The notes beneath the pieces were generated by a model. That model was not told where the DNA came from. It was given only the letters and a program-made list of their open reading frames with translations, and did not search any database. A DNA stretch of 12,806 nucleotides from assembly GCA_046483985.1 (NCBI GenBank), contig JAWOCD010000018.1, forward strand, positions 1 through 12,806, in the 5' to 3' direction. The translations under genes were made by a program, and so were the position numbers. This stretch comes from Promethearchaeia archaeon (lineage in GTDB: Archaea > Asgardarchaeota > Lokiarchaeia > Sigyniarchaeales > SOKP01). This document shows positions 2,780 to 12,806 of this stretch, in pieces (the stretch's first letter is position 1; the number at the start of each line of letters is the position of its first letter).

Positions 2780-2960
2780 TGTGAAAAACCGACAGAGCAG
2801 GGGATCGTTGAATGGAGAGACTTTGTGGAACTGTCCTTTTTTATCTGTCCCTCCCTCTGTAACCAGAAAATGGAGGTGAGGATGAAAGTTTATCCGGCTT
2901 CCGAATGACTGGATCACCGCAATGATGCCCGGAGTGATATCTTTTTTTGTGACTGCCTTT
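2780..2960 (-). pseudogene. Internal fragment of an IS91-family (HUH/Y2 rolling-circle) transposase
   Basis: Minus frame reads KAVTKKDITPGIIAVIQSFGSRINFHPHLHFLVTEGG..., matching the 'PG...Q.FG....HPHLH.LV..GG' HUH block. No N- or C-terminal domains attached. Boundaries approximate. Confidence 0.85.
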
Positions 2961-2974
2961 GATTTTGTCGTGCT

Positions 2975-3351
2975 TGCTTCACTCTGGGCTGACTACTATT
3001 TGAAGAGAATGCATGAGGAATCTCTGGAATCAGCCAAGGCGGCTTTTACGGTAATGGGCATGGCTGAGATCGCGGACGTCATGGCCAAGGGATATGAGGA
3101 AAACGGTTACCGGGGGGCGATGACCTCCGCAGCGGAGACCATGGCGGAGTTTTCGAAGCAAACTTATATTTCTCCCTATTTCATTGCTGAGACCTATGTT
3201 TTTGCCGAAGGCCATGGAATGGCTTGAGAAAGCCTATGAGATAAGAGATCCCATAATGCCTTATGTGGGTTATCACATTTTTGATCTCCTGGACGACGAC
3301 CCCCGGTACCAGGAACTTCTGCGGAAGATGAACCTGCCTCCATCAAAATAA
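2975..3351 (+). pseudogene. Frameshifted C-terminal TPR fragment of a Ser/Thr kinase or adenylate-cyclase/TolB-like TPR protein
   Basis: ...YISPYFIAETYVFA, then a frameshift near 3205-3210, then AMEWLEKAYEIRDPIMPYVGYHIFDLLDDDPRYQELLRKMNLP...stop at 3351. The 'WLEKAYE.RDP...FD.L..DPRYQ.LLR.MNL' tail is characteristic. The 5' part is missing and the start is approximate. Confidence 0.75.
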
Positions 3352-3380: not shown

Positions 3381-4175
3381 TCATCCTCTTACTATCGCTA
3401 TGAATTTTGAGAATTTCTCAAGAATGTCATTTCTTAAGTCTTGAATGAATTCATCAGGACCGTGTTCTTTTTCTACAAGCAGACATCCTTTACTTGTCTT
3501 CCGATTGAAATATTTATAAAGGTTTTCAGGAGTATCTACAAAGTATCCCTTATCTCTATATTGTTCTACCTCTTTAAAGATTGCAGCTTCATCAGGCACA
3601 TGTCTAAGAATGAAATACATATAATGTAAATCTTTAGCTCGCTTTAATTCATCTTCTCTATCTAAAAAGGTTGCCCCTTTATGATAAAGAAAAGCGGATG
3701 GGCGTGGGCAATAAATTTCATATTCAGCTTTTCGTCTGTCATCAGAAATATCTACTTTGCATCTATGGTTAAGAAGAAAATCAAATCTATCTACTTTATT
3801 TATATTTATCTGTCTTCCGATTAAATTGTCTATCGCATCCCTGCTGATTTCAGGATATGTGATGAATTCCACAGGAATTTTCCCTCCCTTATACAAAACA
3901 ACAGGATACATTTTTCCTATTTCTAAGTGACGCTCTGAATAATCCAAAGCAGAGAGTTTGTCAAAAACTGTCTTTTTCTTTTTCACACCTTGGATATCCC
4001 CAAATCCAAAATCGATGTCAACTGTTGTTATTATCTTTTTAGGTCTTTTCTTCCATAAATAATTTGAATAAATATAGGGAACCCAACCACCTACAAGTGT
4101 AAGGTTCTCAAGATATTCCTTAAGATCATTTAGAACACTGAAAAAAGCGGATTCAAGTTTATGTTGTTCAAACAA
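3381..4175 (-). CDS. Nucleotidyltransferase-fold toxin of a type IV TA / abortive infection pair (AbiEii / GSU2403-like)
   Basis: 'LVGGW', 'TTVDIDF', 'FLYHK' and 'KRAKDLHY' motifs of Pol-beta-like AbiEii NTases. TTG start overlaps the upstream antitoxin stop by 8 bp. Confidence 0.75.
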   Translation of the reverse strand: MFEQHKLESAFFSVLNDLKEYLENLTLVGGWVPYIYSNYLWKKRPKKIITTVDIDFGFGDIQGVKKKKTVFDKLSALDYSERHLEIGKMYPVVLYKGGKIPVEFITYPEISRDAIDNLIGRQININKVDRFDFLLNHRCKVDISDDRRKAEYEIYCPRPSAFLYHKGATFLDREDELKRAKDLHYMYFILRHVPDEAAIFKEVEQYRDKGYFVDTPENLYKYFNRKTSKGCLLVEKEHGPDEFIQDLRNDILEKFSKFIAIVRG

Positions 4176-4875
4176 GAGACTTACCTTGATTCCCTAAAAC
4201 ATTCTCAAGAAATTGCGCATGCTCTCTACCTCTCGGCTGAAAATTATAAAGGTCAAGATAGAGCTGTAAATTAGAGACAACATGGAAGCCTTTTATTACC
4301 TGAGAATTAAACAATATGCTTTTTTTATAATAGGGATTAATGATATAAATATTGCCTCCACTTACCAGTTCTTTGAGGTCTAATTCTTGTCGCAGTCTCA
4401 GAATCTCCTTCTCCCAATTTTTTGAAAAAAAATAAAAGTAAATATTATCCGTTTTAACATAGGATGTGATTAAATTCGCTCCAGAATGAAGAGTGAAAGC
4501 ATATTTGTCTTTATTTTGGATAGATTTAATTTTCTTAAATATATCTTTTTCCGGAGAATAATATAAATCGACTTCGTTAAATTCAAATCTATAATACTTT
4601 AGCCAGGCATTTATGAGCTCTTCCTTATTGGTGAGAACAGTAAAACTTTTAGGTCCTTTTTTTACTCTCTCTACAAAGCCCAACCTGGATAATTCTTCCA
4701 AAACCTCTTGGGCAAATCCTAAACTCACTTTGTTTTCACCAATAAAATCTCTTACTACCCATTTTTTATTTGGATCTTGAAGCATCTTTCTTAATATTAT
4801 GGACGCTTTATCTGCAAAAATATTCTTTCTTCTTTTCATGCTCTTTATAATGTTCACCATTCTTCTTATGTTCAC
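4168..4875 (-). CDS. AbiEi-like type IV TA antitoxin / winged-helix transcriptional regulator (true start probably ATG at 4839)
   Basis: N-terminal wHTH-like segment (VSLGFAQEVLEELSRLGFVER) and C-terminal 'VVSNLQLYLDL....PRGREHAQFL' typical of AbiEi_2-type antitoxins. Translationally coupled to the NTase. Confidence 0.78.
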   Translation of the reverse strand: MNIRRMVNIIKSMKRRKNIFADKASIILRKMLQDPNKKWVVRDFIGENKVSLGFAQEVLEELSRLGFVERVKKGPKSFTVLTNKEELINAWLKYYRFEFNEVDLYYSPEKDIFKKIKSIQNKDKYAFTLHSGANLITSYVKTDNIYFYFFSKNWEKEILRLRQELDLKELVSGGNIYIINPYYKKSILFNSQVIKGFHVVSNLQLYLDLYNFQPRGREHAQFLENVLGNQGKSLV

Positions 4876-5059: not shown

Positions 5060-5620
5060 TTTGTTGGTGATAATTTTCCCTCCATTTCATCAAATTCCCA
5101 TCATCTAAGCGACTTCATCACTCATCATACATGTAAAATAAAGGTCAAGTCAACAAGCAACCCACCAAAAAGAGAGAACATCAAAAAATCAGTCTAATAG
5201 TGCCACACAAAGAACAGAGATCTCCCTTACCCCTGAACTAGGGGATTAGAATATCACAAATACTCTGATAGTTCCTCAGCGGCTATAGAGAGCTGAGCTT
5301 GAGGAGGCGGGGGCCGAGCAGCCTTAAAAGTCAGATTAAGGTGTTTGATGATCTTGTCTATGACTTTGTGGTCTTCAATAAAGGAGACAATTCGCATGGT
5401 TCCTCCGCATTGGGGACAGATGAGAGGATCGATACTGTGCACATTGAATCCTGTATGACGCCAGTGAAGAATCTTTTGGAAGGCTCTCAAATCGGTTCTC
5501 ATATTCCGGAAGAAATGGCTCAAAATAATGGAAGAGCACACTGTAAAAAACGGTGCGCTCCGGATGATGTGGGCGGTAGACCCTGCTCATGGCAGGGATA
5601 GTGATTCAAGAAATGTGCCG
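5018..5620 (-). mobile_element. Internally deleted, non-autonomous IS91-family element
   Basis: Three non-contiguous transposase pieces are joined: N-terminus (MSRVYRPHHPERTVFY..LFHYFE.FL.EYE.RFE, from 5590), a middle piece (WRHTGFNVH) and the C-terminal zinc ribbon (DPLICPQCGGTMRIVSFIED..VI.KI..HL, to 5254). A hairpin cccct-gaact-agggg near 5230-5244 and the ori end follow. The ter boundary was not identified. Confidence 0.8.
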
Positions 5621-5731
5621 GGAAGGAGAAGAGATTAAAGTCCTCTGTTGATTGATAGGGTAGATTTTGGAGTGAAGTCGTCATGTGTCAACCGTCGTTT
5701 ACTTGAAGAAAAAACAACAATTTTTGTTCCT

Positions 5732-5782
5732 ATTTTTGATAAAAAAATTAGGTAAACAGGTATGACGGCACTGTATTTTATG
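5732..5782 (+). repeat. 51-bp direct repeat, copy 2; overlaps the probable tRNA promoter
   Basis: atttttgataaaaaaattaggtaaacaggtatgacggcactgtattttatg; one mismatch to 2615-2665. Confidence 0.95.
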
Positions 5783-5789
5783 GTAAATT
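5762..5789 (+). promoter_or_regulatory. Possible promoter for the tRNA-Ala gene
   Basis: ATGACG (5762-5767), 16 nt, TAAATT (5784-5789) with an extended TG at 5781-5782, 28 nt upstream of the tRNA 5' end. Confidence 0.4.
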
Positions 5790-5817
5790 ATAGGGGAGAC
5801 CCGTGATTTGATGACGT

Positions 5818-5855
5818 GGGCGGTTAGCTCAGTTGGGAGAGCGTGGCGTTCGCAA
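5818..5855 (+). tRNA. tRNA-Ala(CGC), 5' half only; interrupted at the 3' edge of the anticodon loop
   Basis: GGGCGGT-TA-GCTC-AGTTGGGA-GAGC-G-TGGCG-TTCGCAA: acceptor 5' strand with G3, a perfect D arm, anticodon 5' stem and a 7-nt loop with CGC. The next bases (GATGA) do not pair with TGGCG, and I saw no T-arm or 3' half in the window. Confidence 0.88.
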
Positions 5856-6015
5856 GATGATAGCAGGGAAGATGCTTAAGTTATTGAAATCAAGGGAAAT
5901 ACCAGTGATATCAGCGACTTATCTTTGATTTTCCTTTCAATTATAATACCATAATTTCAGCAATTTTCAATCGATTTTGGCACTTATTTGGCACATGGGG
6001 AGAAGTCTGGTTTGA
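5849..6015 (+). repeat. att-like 167-bp repeat, copy 1 (core TTCGCAA, IHF-like site, tandem arm-type repeats)
   Basis: Gap-free alignment to 11521-11687 with 149/167 identity by hand. Contains TAAGTTATTGAAA (one mismatch to the IHF consensus YAANNNNTTGATW) and TTTGGCAC x2 at an 11-bp period (5976-5983, 5987-5994). Confidence 0.9.
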
Positions 6016-6375
6016 TCATAAGAAAGGGAGTTTATGGAACATAAAGATATCTATGGAAATAGTAAACAATGGACAGTCTAAACCATTAATGTGTCTTCTG
6101 GAATTTTTTCAAATGATACACTTTTTTATCTTATTGTCTCTATGTCATCTGTTTTCAGTTTTACAAAGTGTAACATATGTTACAAAACATATAATCTTAT
6201 CACCGCCATATCTTTTATTTTCTGTTCTATGGATTTTGTTAGATGTAACATTAATTTTTATGTGGATGATTGTTTATAAATCATATCTAATTGATTTTAA
6301 AGGAAATTAATAGATTGGTATGAATTTTGCTCAATTTAATAATATTGGGAAATATTTTAATGAAAGGAAGAAGAG

Positions 6376-6549
6376 ATGATGTTTGTAAAATTATCAGAAG
6401 GAAATATTAGGAAACAAGGTTTTAAAAATAATGAAGTGAATGATGTAACGCCAGAAAGTTTATGCACAGAGCTATGTGCAATGATATGCGAAGCTCCTGG
6501 TGGAGATCGAAGCAATGACACTGTTTTGGGATGGAACATTGCTGGATAA
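6376..6549 (+). CDS. Cys-rich RiPP precursor peptide, 57 aa, absent from the ORF track
   Basis: MMFVKLSEGNIRKQGFKNNEVNDVTPESLCTELCAMICEAPGGDRSNDTVLGWNIAG*. RBS GAAAGGA at 6362-6368, a hydrophilic leader and a CxxxCxxxC core, upstream of and co-oriented with an rSAM/SPASM gene. Confidence 0.85.
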   Translation: MMFVKLSEGNIRKQGFKNNEVNDVTPESLCTELCAMICEAPGGDRSNDTVLGWNIAG

Positions 6550-6892
6550 TAAACTAATCACCATCTAAGTAATTGTATAAAATGTAAATTTGTTCAATTA
6601 ATTTCATTTCGTTATTTAAAAAATTTTATTTGATCTTACCAAAGGAATGAGGGATTTATTTTATTAGATTCCAGATATTTGAAGGTAAAGTGATGTTGGG
6701 TTCATTGGAAACGAGGTAATGAAAAAGTTGCCAAAAAGAAAAATTAGATATTACATAAAGACACAAGAAAGGAAATATCTTCTTTAATTAAATTTGTTTA
6801 AACATCTGAGATAATTCATATTTCATTTCGCTCCTGTTATGAGAAATAATTAATATTACATTACAATAATTTGATAAATTAAGTTCAAATTT

Positions 6893-8188
6893 ATGTCAAT
6901 AGAAAAGAGAAGTATTTATATTAAGAAGGGAACATTTATTTATTTATGTGATTATAATTTTATTATCAATAAAGAAATTGAGAAAGAATTTATAAAATAT
7001 AAGAGGTTTAGAAAAATTGAGGTTAGAGATATTATTATTTCTAGATCTAAACTATCAAGAGAAGTAAAAAAAATAAGACAGCTTCAATTTGAGGTAACAC
7101 AAAATTGTAATTTAAATTGTAAGTATTGTGTTTATGGAGAACATTATGATCGTCGTAAAAAAGCAAAAAAAGAACTGGAATATAAAACTGCGAAAGCAGC
7201 AATTGATTATGTTTTTAACATTATTTCCAAAAGATATAAAAAAGAATTTGATATAAGTTTCTACGGAGGAGAACCTTTATTAAATTTTGAAACAATAGAA
7301 AAGATTGTGGAATATGCAAAAAATAAATTTATAAATTGGAAAATTAATTTTCATATAACAACTAATGGAACTCTATTAGATAAAAAGAAAATAAATTTTT
7401 TTATAAAAAATAATTTTCATGTTTTAATAAGTTTAGATGGTCCTAAAGAAATACATGATGAAAAGAGAATTTATGCACATGGGAAAGGATCTTTCAGAAA
7501 AATTATGTTAAATTTGAATGAACTTAGAGATACAAACGAAAATTTTTATAACAAAAATATATCTTTTTCTTCCGTTTGGTCTTTTGATTTATCTTTAAAA
7601 AAAATATATGACTTCTATACTAAAGAAGAATTAGTTAAATACAATGAAATACTTTTATCACCACTAGATCCTGGAACAAAAAGTTATTTTAAGGAGTATA
7701 CCTTTGATAAAGAGAAAAAAATGAAAGAATTTTCTAATATTATAAATTTAATTGAGAACAAAAAAAAGAAAAAGATTAAAATAAATACTTTCGAATATAA
7801 TATTTTAGGAATTCATAACTCTATAGAGAATATGTTATTTAAGCGATTTTTTACTACTTTATATGGAACTTGTTTATTTAACCTTAAAGTTTTTTTGGAT
7901 GTTGATGGATTCTTTCATATATGTCATATGGTTGAAGAATCATGGCCTATTGGAGATGCATGGAATGGATTGAACTTCAATAAAATGAAAGAATTGTCTG
8001 ATAAGTTTATTTATTTAAACAAAGTATATTGCAACAATTGTAAATATAAATTTCTTTGTCGTAGATGTTTTGCACAATCTATAAAAAAAGGAAAAATCAA
8101 TATAAAGAATTTTTCTTGTGAAAATAGGAAGAAGTCAATACAAGAACAATTAGAAAGATATGTTAATTATAAAATAAAATACAAATGA
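6893..8188 (+). CDS. Radical SAM/SPASM peptide maturase
   Basis: CNLNCKYC (CxxxCxxC), 'FYGGEPLL', 'TTNGTLL', 'ISLDGP...HD..R', and SPASM cysteines (GTC...DG.FHIC...CNNC.....CRRC...C). Confidence 0.93.
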   Translation: MSIEKRSIYIKKGTFIYLCDYNFIINKEIEKEFIKYKRFRKIEVRDIIISRSKLSREVKKIRQLQFEVTQNCNLNCKYCVYGEHYDRRKKAKKELEYKTAKAAIDYVFNIISKRYKKEFDISFYGGEPLLNFETIEKIVEYAKNKFINWKINFHITTNGTLLDKKKINFFIKNNFHVLISLDGPKEIHDEKRIYAHGKGSFRKIMLNLNELRDTNENFYNKNISFSSVWSFDLSLKKIYDFYTKEELVKYNEILLSPLDPGTKSYFKEYTFDKEKKMKEFSNIINLIENKKKKKIKINTFEYNILGIHNSIENMLFKRFFTTLYGTCLFNLKVFLDVDGFFHICHMVEESWPIGDAWNGLNFNKMKELSDKFIYLNKVYCNNCKYKFLCRRCFAQSIKKGKINIKNFSCENRKKSIQEQLERYVNYKIKYK

Positions 8189-8201
8189 TAGAATTGGAAT
8201 A

Positions 8202-9011
8202 ATGACTGAATACTTCCATCAATTTGTTAGGATAGAACAGGGTGTAGTTAACTCAATAATAATAGATTTTTTGCATAATAAACTATTTCATATAGATAAT
8301 GTAACTATTAAAAAATTTTACAATAATAAGTATAATAGTATTCAAGACTTTGTAAATAGAGCAAGAGAAGAAAAATTGCTTATTAAGATAAAAGAAAGAA
8401 CTTGGATTCCGTATTTCAATTTTAAAAAAGAAAAACAAATGGAAAACAATATTAATTATCTTACGTTAGAAGTCGATGAAGGAGTTAATTTAGAGATTAT
8501 AAAAAGGAAAATTAACTATATCTCAAATGCTTATATTTCTAGAATAATAACATATGGTAAAAACAAAAAAATAAATGCTAAAAAAATTTTGATTAAAGGA
8601 AATATTATAAAACAAATATATAAGAAAAAAAATTTCAAAGATTGTGTTAATAAAAGTGAAGTCAAGCCTTGGTTGACAAAAGAATTAAATGTATATAAAT
8701 ATCAATTTAATATGAGTTATAATAGTTGTTGGGGCAAGAAAATTGCGATCTCAAATGAAGGAAATGTAAGACCATGCATTTATAGTCATTTATCTTTAGG
8801 GAATTTCTATAACCAACCAACTGAAGAGGTAATTGAAAGATTAACTAAATATTGGAATATAACAAAGGACAATATTGAAATATGTAAGGATTGTGAATTT
8901 AGATATTTATGTTTTAATTGTCCCGAATATAATTATATAAAAACGAATGATTTATATAAAAAAAATCCTTCTTGTAGTTATAATCCGTATTCTGGTAAAT
9001 GGATAAGTTAA
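8202..9011 (+). CDS. SPASM-domain protein lacking the SAM-cluster motif (pseudo-rSAM, grasp-with-SPASM-like partner)
   Basis: No CxxxCxxC. C-terminus 'NSCWGKKIAIS..G.VRPC...YWNITKD.IEICKDCEFRYLCFNC...CSYNPYSGKW'. N-terminal 'G...SIIIDF' segment could be an RRE. Starts 13 bp after the rSAM gene. Confidence 0.85.
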   Translation: MTEYFHQFVRIEQGVVNSIIIDFLHNKLFHIDNVTIKKFYNNKYNSIQDFVNRAREEKLLIKIKERTWIPYFNFKKEKQMENNINYLTLEVDEGVNLEIIKRKINYISNAYISRIITYGKNKKINAKKILIKGNIIKQIYKKKNFKDCVNKSEVKPWLTKELNVYKYQFNMSYNSCWGKKIAISNEGNVRPCIYSHLSLGNFYNQPTEEVIERLTKYWNITKDNIEICKDCEFRYLCFNCPEYNYIKTNDLYKKNPSCSYNPYSGKWIS

Positions 9012-9130
9012 TTGGATATATTTTTTTAACGAACTGCCCCCCAAAATTAGTACCACCTGGAGTGCTAAGATTTTCGTGTTATAATAGGCATTATCAGAGC
9101 GAAAGAGAAGCCCTTTTGAGGAGGCTGATG

Positions 9131-9439
9131 ATGTCCGGTAAATATGGGAAACGATACACTCCAAAATTTAAGTTTCAAGTCGTCATGGAAGTCATTAAGA
9201 GTTCAAAAACGGTCGCCCAGATTGCTCGGGGCTATGGTGTGCATCCGATTACGATCCATAAGTGGAAAAAGGAGTTTGAAGAGAAAGGCCCCGAGATATT
9301 CGGAGAGAAAACAACCATTCATGAATATGAGAGGAAGATCCGGGAACTTGAACAACTGATCGGACATAAGGAGGTGGAGATCGCTCTTTTAAAAAATTTT
9401 TTAACCGGAGACTCAGAAGAGAGGAAAAAATCGAGTTAG
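9131..9439 (+). CDS. IS3-family OrfA (HTH)
   Basis: 'KRYTPKFKFQVV...TVAQIARGYGVHPITIHKWKK' followed by a leucine-zipper-like segment. RBS GAGGAGG at 9118-9124 puts the start at 9128 or 9131, not 8999. Confidence 0.88.
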   Translation: MSGKYGKRYTPKFKFQVVMEVIKSSKTVAQIARGYGVHPITIHKWKKEFEEKGPEIFGEKTTIHEYERKIRELEQLIGHKEVEIALLKNFLTGDSEERKKSS

Positions 9440-10308
9440 TTAAAAAGTTTAAGGATGAACACGGACTCAACAGAATGTTAAAGATTTTGAGCTTATCGAA
9501 AAGCAGCTGGTATTATGCTAAGAATAAAAAACCATATACAGACAAATACAGTAATTTGAGAAAGCCATTGATGGAGATTGCCAAAAAAAATCCGGAATAC
9601 GGATACAGGCGGACAACATCTGAACTTGCTGAAAGAGGTTTTCTTATCAATCATAAGGTCGTAGAAAAGCTTCATCGGCACTGGAATTTATCAGTTATGA
9701 AAAGAGTTAAAATTCCCAAACCGAATCCCATTGTTAAGCTTTTAAAGAAAGCTGGATCGAAAGTAAACTTAGTTTCCAGCCTCAGAGAGATTGATGACCT
9801 TGAAGTTTTCTATACAGATTTCACTGAGATTGTTTATTGTAAAGGGCAGGCTAAAGCTCAGCTGATGCCCATAATCGACCACAGCAGCAAACTTGCTGCC
9901 GGGCATGCTTTGGGTAAAAGTGCCAACACAGATCTGGCCATCAAAGCCTGGAAGAAAATGAAAGCAACACTGAAGAGGTTTGGCCGGAGAATTGAAGACA
10001 TTATTATTCATCATGATCAGGATGGTGTTTATACAGGATACAGATGGCTCAATGAGATTATGTTGAATTCTAAAGCGCGGCTATCTTATTCAGAAGATGG
10101 AGCTAAAGAAAATGCTTATATGGAATCATTCAATGGCAGGTTTAAAGTTGAGAACCGTTTGATTTTCTGGGAGCTGGATGATTTTGAAGAATTAGAAAAG
10201 GTTGTCAATAACCGAATCCGTTATTATAATTTTGTTCGGAAACATTCGGCGCTTGGTAATAAGTCGCCAATGAAATATTTAAAAGAAAAGGGCAAACTGG
10301 AACTCTGA
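9391..10308 (+). CDS. IS3-family OrfB DDE transposase, probably expressed as OrfAB by -1 frameshift
   Basis: 'YGYRR', 'TDFT', 'HHDQ', 'NAYMESFNG.FK.E', 'YYN..R.HSALG..SP'. The -1 frame is open from 9370, with slippery run TTTTAAAAAATTTTTT at 9387-9402. Confidence 0.9.
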   Translation, partial: KKFFNRRLRREEKIELVKKFKDEHGLNRMLKILSLSKSSWYYAKNKKPYTDKYSNLRKPLMEIAKKNPEYGYRRTTSELAERGFLINHKVVEKLHRHWNLSVMKRVKIPKPNPIVKLLKKAGSKVNLVSSLREIDDLEVFYTDFTEIVYCKGQAKAQLMPIIDHSSKLAAGHALGKSANTDLAIKAWKKMKATLKRFGRRIEDIIIHHDQDGVYTGYRWLNEIMLNSKARLSYSEDGAKENAYMESFNGRFKVENRLIFWELDDFEELEKVVNNRIRYYNFVRKHSALGNKSPMKYLKEKGKLEL

Positions 10309-10377
10309 AATGTTAGCGCAAATTAGCCCCATAAGTGGTACTAAAAATGGGGGGCATATCCTAATAATTTAAATTCA

Positions 10378-11535
10378 ATGTGTTTATTTGAAAAAAAATA
10401 TTTAGCTTTTATTCTTCTTATTGTCAACTTAATTTCAATAATGATGAATAATTGCCAAATGGAGGAACGCACTTTTACTATCGAATCTGTTAATGGTTAC
10501 AAGATCATTCATAACAAGAAACCTCTTTGGAAAGATAGACAAAAGATCACCTTGAAGTTAATCAGAAAAATAGGAGGAATCGAGACAGAAAAAGAAGAAT
10601 ATATTTTTCATAGAAATTTCGACATGGTTAAAGACAAAAATAGTAATAAATATATTTTATCTTGGGGGAAGTTTTTTATTCGGAAGTTTAATAAAGACTG
10701 GAATATTGTATTGAGATTTGGCAAAGAGGGACAGGGTCCAGGAGAGATTGAATGGCCCATGTGTTTATCAAGTGATTCTCAGGATAACATTTATATTTTT
10801 GACTCGAGAAGTGGAACAAGAGCCACAGTCTATTCACCGGATGGAGAGCATCTCAAAGACATCAAACTTCCCGGACGCTGCCAGAAGATGATCATTCTCA
10901 ATTCTGGTGATTATGTCTTGGATACTCTGGATCTCAACAAAGAAGTCAATCCTACTATTATGGCAGTCGTATCTAATGAGGGGAAAATAATAAAAAGATT
11001 CTGTGCGGCTAAGGATTATGGGATACCTTCTCTTACTTATAATGCCAACCAGGTTTATTTCACCAATGATAATAAAGATAACATCTATATTGCTTTTGAG
11101 AATCAAAACAGAATAGAAAAGTATTCCTCTTCAGGAGATTTGATATACAGGGTGGAACAACCTTTGGATTACTCAATAATCAATAAAATGACTTTACAGG
11201 GTGAACAGAGGTGGCCTGAACTTACGTATGTCAATATAGATATTAAAATAGATTCCAAGGAAAGGCTTTGGGTGACAACTTTTAAAGACTTACCTGAGAA
11301 AAGAGGATCAAGATCTCAAACACTTGAGAATCAAGATAATCTTGAATTTCGGATTTATAGTAAAGATGGAATATGGCTAGACCGAATACCAGTTCCTGTC
11401 CCTCATTTTAAAAAAAGAATCTATGGAAACCGTATTTATTTGATCGATCCTTATTTTGAGACATGTATTTATGAATATGAGATAATTGAAATATATATAG
11501 GAGAGAAAAAAGACAATACTTTCGCAAGACAATAA
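10378..11535 (+). CDS. Exported 6-bladed beta-propeller (NHL-like) protein
   Basis: Hydrophobic N-terminus ending in a Cys (possible lipoprotein), 'FGKEGQGPGE', and repeated 'D..DNIYI.D', 'YS.DG' and 'IDSK.RLWV' blade motifs. Its stop codon lies inside att repeat copy 2. Confidence 0.8.
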   Translation: MCLFEKKYLAFILLIVNLISIMMNNCQMEERTFTIESVNGYKIIHNKKPLWKDRQKITLKLIRKIGGIETEKEEYIFHRNFDMVKDKNSNKYILSWGKFFIRKFNKDWNIVLRFGKEGQGPGEIEWPMCLSSDSQDNIYIFDSRSGTRATVYSPDGEHLKDIKLPGRCQKMIILNSGDYVLDTLDLNKEVNPTIMAVVSNEGKIIKRFCAAKDYGIPSLTYNANQVYFTNDNKDNIYIAFENQNRIEKYSSSGDLIYRVEQPLDYSIINKMTLQGEQRWPELTYVNIDIKIDSKERLWVTTFKDLPEKRGSRSQTLENQDNLEFRIYSKDGIWLDRIPVPVPHFKKRIYGNRIYLIDPYFETCIYEYEIIEIYIGEKKDNTFARQ

Positions 11536-11687
11536 CGAAGAGGATGCTTAAGTTATTGAAATCAAGGGAAATGCCAGTGATATCAGCGACTTACCTTTGA
11601 TTTTCCTTTCAATCCTAATACCATAATTTCAGCAATTTTCAGTCGATTTTGTCACTTATTCGTCACATGGAGAGGAGTTTGGTTTGA
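11521..11687 (+). repeat. att-like 167-bp repeat, copy 2
   Basis: Begins with TTCGCAAGA; 89% identical to 5849-6015. Arm-type repeats here read TTTGTCAC and TTCGTCAC (11648-11655, 11659-11666). Confidence 0.9.
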
Positions 11688-11758
11688 GAAAAAGTAAGGT
11701 AAGGAGACTGAATTCAAGAGGCATGAAAATATGATTGGTTTGAATGAACAACCAATCT

Positions 11759-12176
11759 TGTCAACAAGCATGGAATAATGACTCTTTACAGGCGTTGAAA
11801 AATGACCCCTCTAAAAGAGAGAGGGATTAAATAATGAAACAAAACGAGCTATACTTACTCCCGATAACAACATTGGGAGGAGCAAAGATGGTAAAAAGGG
11901 ACATGTGGTATGAGATCCACAGTCGTTTCAAACGCAACGAATCGAAAAAGTCGATTGCCAGGACACTGGATCTGGATGTACGCACTGTGCGGAAGATTCT
12001 GTCTCAATCTGAACCGAAAAGATATCAGAGACAGACGAGCGGTGATACTCTGTTGACAGGCTATCAGGATTACATAAAAAAGCGTCTTGAAGCAGTTGGA
12101 TACTGCGCTCAATCGATCTATGAAGAGCTCAAGGAGAGAGGCTACAGCGGAGGTTATGACACTGTAAGAAGATTCA
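11759..12176 (+). mobile_element. IS21-family element, left end with truncated istA
   Basis: Starts TGTCAAC with internal repeats ggaataatgactct and tgaaaaatgacccct, typical of IS21 multi-repeat ends, followed by the IstA N-terminus. Confidence 0.8.
11888..12176 (+). pseudogene. istA: IstA transposase N-terminus, interrupted
   Basis: MVKRDMWYEIH...SKKSIARTLDLDVRTVRKIL...IYEELKERGYSGGYDTVRRF, with RBS GGGAGG. Similarity stops at 12177, where another IS21 end begins. Confidence 0.82.
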
Positions 12177-12806
12177 TGCATATTCCGGTTAATCTAGCCA
12201 CCGATTCTGGAGTTATCCGGTCACTAGTTAGAGCGAAGCGACGCTGTAGTTTCATTATATCACCTTGTGGCCGGAATGAGTCAATGGAGAACTACGTTTT
12301 CTCATAGATTCTCCTTTAAGTTCCAGCCTATATGCGTTATGAATGACTCTATCCATAATGGCATCCGAGAGAGTTGGATTTCCGAATCGTTCATGCCATT
12401 CTGAGATAGGGACTTGCGTGATTAGGATTGTGGATGAGAGTTTATATCTATCCTCCATGATTTCGAGAAGGTCAGTGGTCTGTGTTTCGGATAAAGGACT
12501 GCGAAGCCAGTCATCGAGGATGAGAAGATGGGTTTTTCTAAGCAGGTCCAGCACCTTGGGGTAGGACCCATCTGCATGGGACATTTTTAATTTTTCAAAC
12601 AAGCGGGCAAGTTGAAAGTAGCGGACTTTAAATCCATTCCGGCAGGCTGCATTTCCCAGGGCACAGGCAAGATAGGTTTTACCAGCGCCGGTTGGTCCGG
12701 TGATTATAGTATTGAGTTTTTCCTGGATCCATTCTCCTTCTGCCAGGTAAAGAACTTGACTGCGATCAAGCCCGCGCTTTTTTGAGATCTCGAGATCTTC
12801 CATAAC
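12177..12806 (-). mobile_element. Second IS21-family element (right end plus istB), inverted, continuing beyond the window
   Basis: End sequence TGCATATTCCGGTTAATCTAGCCACCGATTCTGG... at 12177, immediately downstream of the istB stop. Confidence 0.8.
12255..12806 (-). CDS. istB: IstB AAA+ ATPase helper, 5'-partial at the window edge
   Basis: Walker A GPTGAGKT, Walker B LLILDDW, 'LLEIMEDRY..SSTI' and 'DAIMDRVIHNAY...LKGESMRK'. Confidence 0.93.
   Translation of the reverse strand, partial: VMEDLEISKKRGLDRSQVLYLAEGEWIQEKLNTIITGPTGAGKTYLACALGNAACRNGFKVRYFQLARLFEKLKMSHADGSYPKVLDLLRKTHLLILDDWLRSPLSETQTTDLLEIMEDRYKLSSTILITQVPISEWHERFGNPTLSDAIMDRVIHNAYRLELKGESMRKRSSPLTHSGHKVI

Follow-up and report, generated by a model that had tools for sequence, protein, structure and literature searches.

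Why does a tRNA gene stop halfway, and why does the sequence behind it return several kilobases further on? The DNA in question, referred to here as the window, is a complete contig (C90) of 12,806 nucleotides (nt), from a bin of 128 contigs and 4.06 Mb. At positions 5818–5855 it contains positions 1–38 of a tRNA-Ala(CGC) gene. An earlier note, made from the sequence alone, suggested that integrase-less cassettes are stacked behind this half gene, in the manner of an integron. Our analysis points elsewhere. Integrative islands that insert at tRNA-Ala(CGC) probably built up on the 5' side of the gene as a tandem array and then decayed, and the window would show the upstream portion of that array. 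This is close to what the note had called its duller alternative, namely tandem islands eroded by deletion. The reading rests on direct observations: the anatomy of the repeated unit, its recurrence in other genomes, the adjacency of integrase and tRNA genes, remnants of integrase genes, and a polymorphism bounded by the crossover core. Note that features are on the forward strand unless stated otherwise.

The displaced half is canonical in all its features. It has a 7-nt acceptor strand, T8, a D arm with G18 and G19, a 5-nt anticodon-stem strand and the loop TTCGCAA. It stops there, as first noted, and ARAGORN called no complete tRNA in the window. A single position distinguishes it from the corresponding part of the intact tRNA-Ala(CGC) genes in two bacterial genomes (G152 and G153), and it is identical to the version matched in a third (G154:C97). 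The loop heptamer (5849–5855) is the core of what we call junction 1. It is followed by a first copy of a non-coding arm (5856–6027), which we take as the P' arm of the element's phage-type attachment site (attP). The arm was aligned with 20 other units and has two spaced GGCAC repeats at its end. At junction 2, the heptamer occurs again (11521–11527), with no tRNA 5' half on its left. A second arm copy comes next and runs to 11699; with the 55 nt beyond it, which are common to a related contig named L027, this feature covers 11528–11754.

Core and arm together make a direct repeat (5849–6027 and 11521–11699) of 179 nt, 88% identical and ungapped, with a spacing of 5672 nt. This confirms, at slightly greater length, the repeat described in the earlier note. 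Over the 172 nt past the core, the two arm copies share 87.2% identity. Similarity begins at the first T of TTCGCAA, and sequences 5' of the heptamer are unalignable between the copies. Conversely, identity to intact tRNA genes ends after the heptamer. Both the junction 2 identity and the L027 polymorphism described below start at its first base. These boundaries support the anticodon-loop heptamer as the crossover site, corresponding to attP class A. The junctions were also found in Logan contigs. Contig L052, from another sequencing run, matches window 5828–11575 at 99.8%, with both junctions on one contig, and L053 and L054 match 10303/10332–11651/12194 at 100%. Since contigs of other runs match, both junctions are real and not an assembly artefact.

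The same arrangement recurs in other genomes. A pattern search that used the arm alone identified 24 contigs (5 genome and 19 metagenome) together with G053, a contig from another Asgard bin. The arm is directly 3' of the same 5' half and TTCGCAA in nearly all of these. The junction order is conserved, with promoter and 5' half followed by TTCGCAA and an arm of ~170 nt. The first ~55 nt of the arm are variable; the final ~110 nt, which end in two GTCAC/GGCAC repeats, show at least 90% conservation from unit to unit. About 40 full arm copies were seen, and the sole one not behind a 5' half and core is window copy 2. The bin itself holds just two copies. Genes next to the units differ from one to another and are of ordinary kinds; they encode PadR regulators with MacB/FtsX-type permeases, Ser/Thr kinases, PASTA proteins, an amino-acid permease and a sigma-54 activator. 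Viral contigs, scanned with arm and junction patterns, gave no match. Weak DNA matches to the arm in the relatives G032, G025 and G006 were rejected on inspection as AT-rich chance similarity. Two loci have partial arm-like sequence in another position. In L026, an orphan tRNA 3' part is located ~3.37–3.55 kb 3' of the unit, with a Val-like anticodon arm and an acceptor strand that matches the Ala 5' half, and partial arm-like sequence follows. In L059 (11506–11620), such sequence is behind an intact tRNA-Ala, with an ABC-transporter cassette next and then a DsbD_2 gene. Arms of this kind may serve 3' of tRNAs as well.

Where does the rest of the tRNA gene lie? The bacterial family that holds G151–G154 and G156 comprises 96 genomes (G154 is labelled Aminicenantes). 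The 5' half is present in 62 of these 96, with 2–4 copies in 16, and for 9 of the 16 the copies are on one contig. On a 185-kb contig (G151:C10), four units are arranged head to tail with 4–7 kb spacing. In G152:C7, one unit is followed by 3.8 kb with a PadR-permease pair and then an intact tRNA-Ala(CGC) gene, with the G3:U70 pair and an encoded CCA. Such intact CCA-encoding genes, containing the same 5' half, are on bacterial contigs of 90–185 kb. Seven further arrays were read. Six (G246, G221, G225, G244, G240 and G217) have one or two displaced halves and then the intact tRNA; in the seventh, L073, the fetched stretch stops at the second displaced half. Every array seen whole has an intact tRNA-Ala(CGC) at its downstream end. 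Tandem stacking at the heptamer, as the earlier note envisaged, is therefore supported, with up to four or more units in G151:C10. Its view that the tRNA is left unrestored is not. In four arrays, the tRNA is followed by an open reading frame (ORF) of 237/238 amino acids (aa). This is the DsbD_2 (PF13386) gene that also lies 3' of the tRNA in L045 and at the integrase loci.

The array units are 0.44–3.8 kb, or ~7 kb at most in G151, and have 0–7 genes, often co-oriented with the tRNA. Cargo includes HTH_3 with Fic, SnoaL, an AbiEii-like protein, an epimerase with an ATP-grasp ligase, and PadR with a permease. An integrase was found in no array unit, so this part of the original description stands. 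In L068 (G221:C27, oriented 7651–8128), a displaced 5' half is only 440 nt before the intact tRNA, and the unit is an arm plus a promoter module. Pairs of PadR and a ~870-aa MacB/FtsX-type permease make up much of the cargo, in both orientations (G151:C10:7500–18000; G152:C7; L073), and these paralogues may multiply in part through tRNA-Ala(CGC) arrays. An all-against-all comparison of cargo detected one near-identical cassette, in two species with differing upstream contexts. This block (L070 4418–6613 and L071 2349–4545) is 96–98% identical and includes the HTH_3 and Fic cassette, the tRNA-Ala and the DsbD_2 gene. Beyond it, identity is 78% in the next host genes, and upstream the two contigs are unrelated. 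Since the block does not stop at the tRNA but continues into the following host gene, it looks like an import by homologous recombination and not a site-specific insertion. The conserved modules may act as portable homology for such exchange.

Which enzyme could have placed islands at this gene? In G151, a frameshifted tyrosine recombinase gene (contig C6) ends 13 nt 5' of an intact tRNA-Ala(CGC). Its homologues form a large family of ~470 aa, with HTH_17, Int_N, SAM_5 and Phage_integrase domains, some labelled Acidobacteriota or Zixibacteria by source. At nine of nine full-length integrase loci, the gene either ends 0–15 nt before an intact tRNA-Ala(CGC) or overlaps it by 10–44 nt. Genes 5' of the integrases are of island type (HTH_3, HTH_17, primase and restriction-modification), and those 3' of the tRNA include DsbD_2 and Mut7-C. 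Hence, because the integrase abuts the 5' end of the tRNA and island genes are upstream, the element occupies the 5' side, and the 5' half must come from it. The earlier note had expected a 3' half to be supplied. No island left end was found within 10 kb upstream of the nine integrases, so either the islands are longer or the contigs are too short.

The last ~110 nt of the integrase genes contain a -35-like hexamer (TAGAAA/TGGAAA) and an extended -10 element (TGgTAAATT). The same -10 motif is ahead of intact tRNA-Ala genes. In addition, the integrase 3' ends have two ATTTGTCAC repeats, 11 bp apart, and the same doubled motif closes the arm. Promoter-like element and ATTTGTCAC pair are conserved at the DNA level, though the integrases are only 64–92% identical to the query. 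From this arrangement, attP would be ~330 bp, with arm-type sites flanking the anticodon-loop core. The ATTTGTCAC-type pairs in both arms, one helical turn apart, are likely arm-type integrase sites. The tRNA promoter is probably inside the 3' end of the integrase gene and supplied by the island. At four loci, the integrase ORF as called extends 44 nt into the tRNA, past the anticodon-loop crossover (L058 4207–4250; L063 6297–6340; L064 11418–11461; L066 10437–10480). Hence, the last codons would differ between the integrated and excised forms.

Parts of these genes are also found beside displaced halves. In L016, L018 and L026, the 5' flank is the last 29 integrase codons joined to the promoter. 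In a second form, ~45 nt more are deleted and just the promoter is left. The third form, more diverged, is that of the window. Here, a promoter or P-arm module (5620–5817) is 5' of the displaced half, with a candidate extended -10 element (TGgTAAATT). It has homology over ~200 nt to G156:C55 and is plausibly homologous to the integrase. Note that a sigma-70 scan of 5600–6400 gave 5 sites against 4.1 expected, with the tRNA-proximal promoter slightly below the tool's threshold. In G246 (L067), the tRNA-proximal unit retains a 115-aa C-terminal, catalytic-domain fragment of the integrase. Remnants graded in this way (115 aa, 29 aa, promoter only) are what erosion in place predicts, if the need of the tRNA for a promoter protects the 3' end. 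The units are then not inherently integrase-less, as had been supposed, since a cognate integrase family abuts the tRNA and the modules are its 3' remnants. A different form of decay is seen in L017 (oriented ~2650–2690), where an internal deletion extends from the D loop of the 5' half into the arm.

We infer the crossover chemistry, arm-site binding, promoter activity and order of events as follows. The integrase, of ~470 aa with excisionase-type helix-turn-helix, Int_N, SAM-like and catalytic domains, would exchange strands in the 7-bp TTCGCAA. An island would enter upstream of the tRNA gene, bringing a fresh 5' half along with a promoter located in the final ~110 nt of its integrase gene. 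The previous promoter and 5' half would be pushed to the far end of the island, where they are fused to its ~170-bp far arm. If integration is repeated and each integrase gene then loses most of its length, a series of units would result, each made of promoter, 5' half, TTCGCAA, arm and cargo, ending in an intact tRNA. We propose that the integrase 3' end is retained because the tRNA needs its promoter. Junction 1 (5818–6027) would be a canonical displaced junction. Junction 2 (11521–11699) would have lost, or never had, a promoter and 5' half, through a recombination ending exactly at the core, and most simply from integrase acting on a secondary site. Beyond the contig end, which is broken by IS21, would lie the intact tRNA and any integrase. 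The earlier picture of an element as core, one arm and cargo is not supported; units normally carry promoter and 5' half on the right, and junction 2 of the window is the exception.

A polymorphism speaks to the origin of junction 2. L027, like L020, equals the window without 5856–11527. Identity is 96.5% over promoter and 5' half (window 5741–5855), 94.2% over arm 2, and 55/55 past the arm. The match stops at 11754, where the IS21 fragment of the window starts. In L027, the arm is directly after the promoter and 5' half, and is arm-2-like from the first base past TTCGCAA. Hence, the exchange was at the core, not inside the 87%-identical arms. Presence and absence of the unit are therefore bounded exactly by the heptamer, in keeping with the earlier note. 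Going by this comparison, the integrase-less 5.67-kb unit has been gained or lost site-specifically at the core at least once. Since there is no 5' half left of junction 2, one recombination partner would have been a secondary site. Its source may be either aberrant excision with re-integration or integrase-mediated deletion. Two further observations concern these contigs. Beyond 7210 (oriented; equal to window 11754), L027 has what looks by eye like the 3' end of an IS21-like istB, which suggests that window and L027 share one IS21 insertion, later rearranged. In L055 (1190–1341), a Logan contig of another run, the end of the beta-propeller gene that precedes core 2 in the window is followed by TTCGCAA, ~45 nt of arm 2 and then arm-1 sequence. 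Such an arm could stem from genuine recombination or from a circle junction, or else the assembly graph may have switched at a shared 30-mer.

Several findings weigh against a decayed array of islands. A full integrase is upstream in 0 of ~35 displaced junctions, which fits decay and integrase-free travel equally. Junction 2 is without the predicted promoter and 5' half, so that an extra event is needed, and a direct repeat of 8–9 nt (GACAATA-type), which flanks core 2 on both sides, is unexplained. Units as small as 0.44 kb and free of cargo, as in G221, are odd as decay products. No single contig has an integrase-bearing island showing both ends. Finally, the link between arm and integrase consists of a shared motif and split assemblies (G151 C10 with C6; G156 C55 with C33).

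Could the units instead be cassettes that travel without an integrase of their own? Units that retain a complete ~330-bp attP, made up of the promoter-bearing integrase 3' remnant, the 5' half, the core and the arm, would then be moved by an integrase encoded elsewhere, into the tRNA or into displaced junctions, building arrays like those of integrons or of cis-mobilizable elements (CIMEs), and displaced tRNA promoters may drive the cassettes. We regard this as possible, though doubtful. Gain or loss of the 5.67-kb unit at the core, in L027, is in its favour. Similarly, no displaced junction has an intact integrase, yet both arm motifs are kept in all, the units are small (0.44–7 kb, 0–7 genes) with genes often in the tRNA orientation, and the last ~110 nt of the arm are at least 90% conserved. 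Conversely, the graded integrase remnants are the prediction of erosion in place, and the single shared cassette (L070/L071) looks like an import by homologous recombination. Nor did tblastn with the cognate integrase find such a gene in the bin. It is unlikely, in our judgement, that the integrase-less units are a real cassette system, that is, a tRNA-anchored integron analogue in Aminicenantes-type Acidobacteriota, moved in trans by the integrase that abuts tRNA-Ala(CGC) and with cassettes transcribed from displaced promoters. If they were, the window unit, with its half-less core, would show capture of neighbouring genes through secondary sites. Units mobile in trans would amount to a cassette-capture system with a design unlike that of integrons.

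The break might also be a feature of RNA and not of DNA, namely a split or intron-bearing archaeal tRNA-Ala, or a chimeric non-coding RNA with a tRNA half. Split and intron-bearing tRNAs occur in archaea, and the bin has archaeal-looking tRNAs that point to an Asgard archaeon. Furthermore, the break adjoins the canonical 37/38 intron position, and the unit retains a promoter-like element. However, the tRNA-Ala 3' half, for which the earlier note had suggested looking downstream, is absent from the bin, and the same 5' half is within the intact CCA-encoding tRNA genes of bacterial contigs. Folding of the arm as RNA, using RNAalifold on 17 units, gave no conserved structure or pairing (consensus energy -3.45 kcal/mol, covariation term ~0), and an Rfam scan of the window returned chance-level matches only. 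An apparent hairpin at the arm end was rejected, being a direct repeat with no stem.

The host matters here too. Sequence comparisons indicate that C90 is most likely a binning contaminant of bacterial origin inside the Asgard bin, and the host is probably a bacterium of the Acidobacteriota/Aminicenantes kind. The contig has bacterial-type insertion sequences and a bacterial-type tRNA half. Its M64 peptidase has full-length homologues, 45% identical, in bacterial genomes G151–G153, and, among 60 other Asgard genomes of the archaeal family, a match in just one. The unit is present in only 2 of 135 genomes of that family, both times on short contigs; the long contigs that bear it are from bacterial genomes. 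An archaeal, RNA-level explanation is hence scarcely credible. Note that no tRNA-Ala gene was found in the bin. Since C90 is a likely contaminant, this absence, and that of the cognate integrase, are uninformative.

Two other explanations, that repeats from different strains were joined in silico or that they are a genome-wide miniature inverted-repeat transposable element (MITE), are very improbable: although the bin is metagenomic, the contig ends in insertion sequences, and the hybrid arm of L055 (arm-2 start, arm-1 rest) switches at a shared 30-mer as in a de Bruijn graph artefact, junction 2 is in three independent assemblies, with both junctions on one contig in one of them, and a dispersed repeat is at odds with just two copies in the bin and with full arm copies elsewhere following a 5' half and core, apart from partial stretches after tRNA 3' ends in L026 and L059.

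How does the decayed array compare with systems already described? In Dehalococcoides, ssrA islands reportedly form tandem stacks in which every island repeats the 3' end of the gene. Tandem ssrA-specific islands of this genus, with transfer-messenger RNA as the target, are the subject of McMurdie et al. 2011 (PMC3146451). Among 3919 islands in Islander, 159 have a 5' fragment of the tRNA gene (tDNA), 2083 have an anticodon-centred attP, and 125 tandems are counted (Hudson, Lau and Williams 2015, PMC4383910). As here, a tyrosine integrase acts in the anticodon loop, the gene is restored and a fragment displaced, a 5' fragment is upstream of the gene and co-oriented with it, and tandem arrays occur. 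In the window, the displaced fragment (5818–5855) is present, and there is no intact gene on the contig, which ends in IS21. Among the differences, the 5'-fragment mode is a minority in Islander (159/3919), and in this family the integrase ORF abuts or overlaps the tRNA and apparently holds its promoter. Also, the Islander tandem rule wants an integrase for each member; most array members here have none and would go uncounted.

Accretion at tRNA genes, leaving decayed integrases along with tRNA fragments, is described for the tycheposons of Prochlorococcus (Hackl et al., bioRxiv 10.1101/2020.12.28.424599). As in our arrays, serial integration at one tRNA pushes older elements deeper, remnants remain, and the cargo is ordinary adaptive genes; the host phylum and integrase family differ. 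In streptococci, accretion of integrative conjugative and mobilizable elements (ICEs and IMEs) is accompanied by CIMEs, which are integrase-less derivatives flanked by attachment sites (PMC5704250). The stretch 5849–11527, between two cores with arms, is likewise an integrase-less unit bounded by such sites, and the modules of relatives hold integrase 3' remnants. Both kinds of unit derive from integrase-bearing elements, are found in tandem and could potentially be mobilised in trans. However, we saw no conjugation or mobilisation genes in the present units, and trans action here is hypothetical. Integrons share the small, mostly co-oriented, recombinase-less units at one site, and a promoter heads each unit here. 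In contrast, the recombination site here is a double-stranded, attP-like module of ~330 bp that includes a tRNA half, and not a folded attC. For both arms and both strands, an attC-like fold was rejected, with energies no better than shuffles (z 0.08 to 0.71). Against the integron-integrase model, which has a cut-off of 265, the family integrase reaches 88.9 bits, and the window has no IntI-type integrase. Archaeal split tRNAs differ in that the bin has no 3' half gene and the arm no conserved pairing.

Islands that displace a 5' half, and tandem arrays of them, are already published; the present case is a tidy example, not a new system. The family's own traits are an integrase that abuts or overlaps the tRNA, a promoter apparently in the integrase 3' end, and frequent arrays of small integrase-less units. 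Taken this way, the locus accounts for an apparently broken tRNA gene. It also reveals a widespread, undescribed island family, in a poorly studied group of uncultured bacteria, that uses the rarer upstream mode of tRNA integration. A promoter within the integrase gene, and a reading frame over the crossover, would be a simple reason why only the integrase 3' end outlasts decay. The arrays illustrate how ordinary genes pile up at one tRNA, including PadR-permease pairs, kinases, toxin-antitoxin pairs and peptide-maturase clusters. Island finders that demand one integrase per array member will overlook them. A practical outcome is that a bacterial contig has been flagged in an Asgard bin.

The stretch between the repeats has a G+C content of 29.6%, compared with 38–43% in the flanks. 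It begins with an 85-aa ORF (6053–6310), with no family match, that is either cargo or spurious. Next are a cargo gene for a peptide-maturase-like protein of the radical S-adenosylmethionine (SAM)/SPASM type (6893–8188; PF04055), whose top NCBIfam matches, the CcpM-type and GG_samocin-type maturases, are both under cut-offs, and a second cargo gene encoding a SPASM-domain protein (8202–9011; PF13186, with TIGR04193 under its cut-off). An IS3-family insertion sequence follows (9020–10370; PF01527 and rve domains), with orfA at 8999–9439, orfB at 9475–10308, and 45-nt inverted repeats at ~9024–9068 and 10323–10367. Hence, the unit lacks a site-specific recombinase, as the earlier note said, but is not purely cargo. 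Neither Pfam nor tblastn with the cognate integrase detected a tyrosine integrase in the window. The last cargo gene (10378–11535) encodes a six-bladed beta-propeller protein of the DUF5128 family, whose homologues carry PF17170, are 58–71% identical and stop ~14 residues sooner. Its frame crosses core 2, as previously described. However, the conserved part stops at '..YEIIE', ~30 nt before the core, and leaves a short spacer. The contexts of the homologues (L074–L077) have unrelated flanks and no modules, and give no origin for junction 2.

Downstream of arm 2, a broken IS21-family element occupies the contig end (11755–12806), with an istA N-terminal fragment (11834–12307) and istB on the reverse strand (12255–12803), identified by NF033546 and NF038214. 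Upstream of the displaced half is a C-terminal remnant of an IS91/ISCR-type transposase (5254–5541, reverse strand), matched weakly by NCBIfam NF052416 (E 5.8e-6). A comparable remnant adjoins the unit in G156:C55. Further upstream, an orphan remnant of the promoter or P-arm module (2597–2665) includes a 58-nt repeat, 95% identical to 5725–5782. It resembles the module 5' of the 5' half in L027 and G156:C55, stops just 5' of the -10 element, and has no 5' half behind it. At 2922–3340, we noticed by eye an apparent conserved C-terminal fragment of a regulatory protein of tetratricopeptide repeat type, in two frames, with no match in NCBIfam. Finally, two genes on the reverse strand encode an AbiEii-like nucleotidyltransferase (3381–4175) and an AbiEi-like antitoxin (4168–4875), recognised by the Pfam pair PF12281/PF09952. 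These are cargo of an older, decayed unit.

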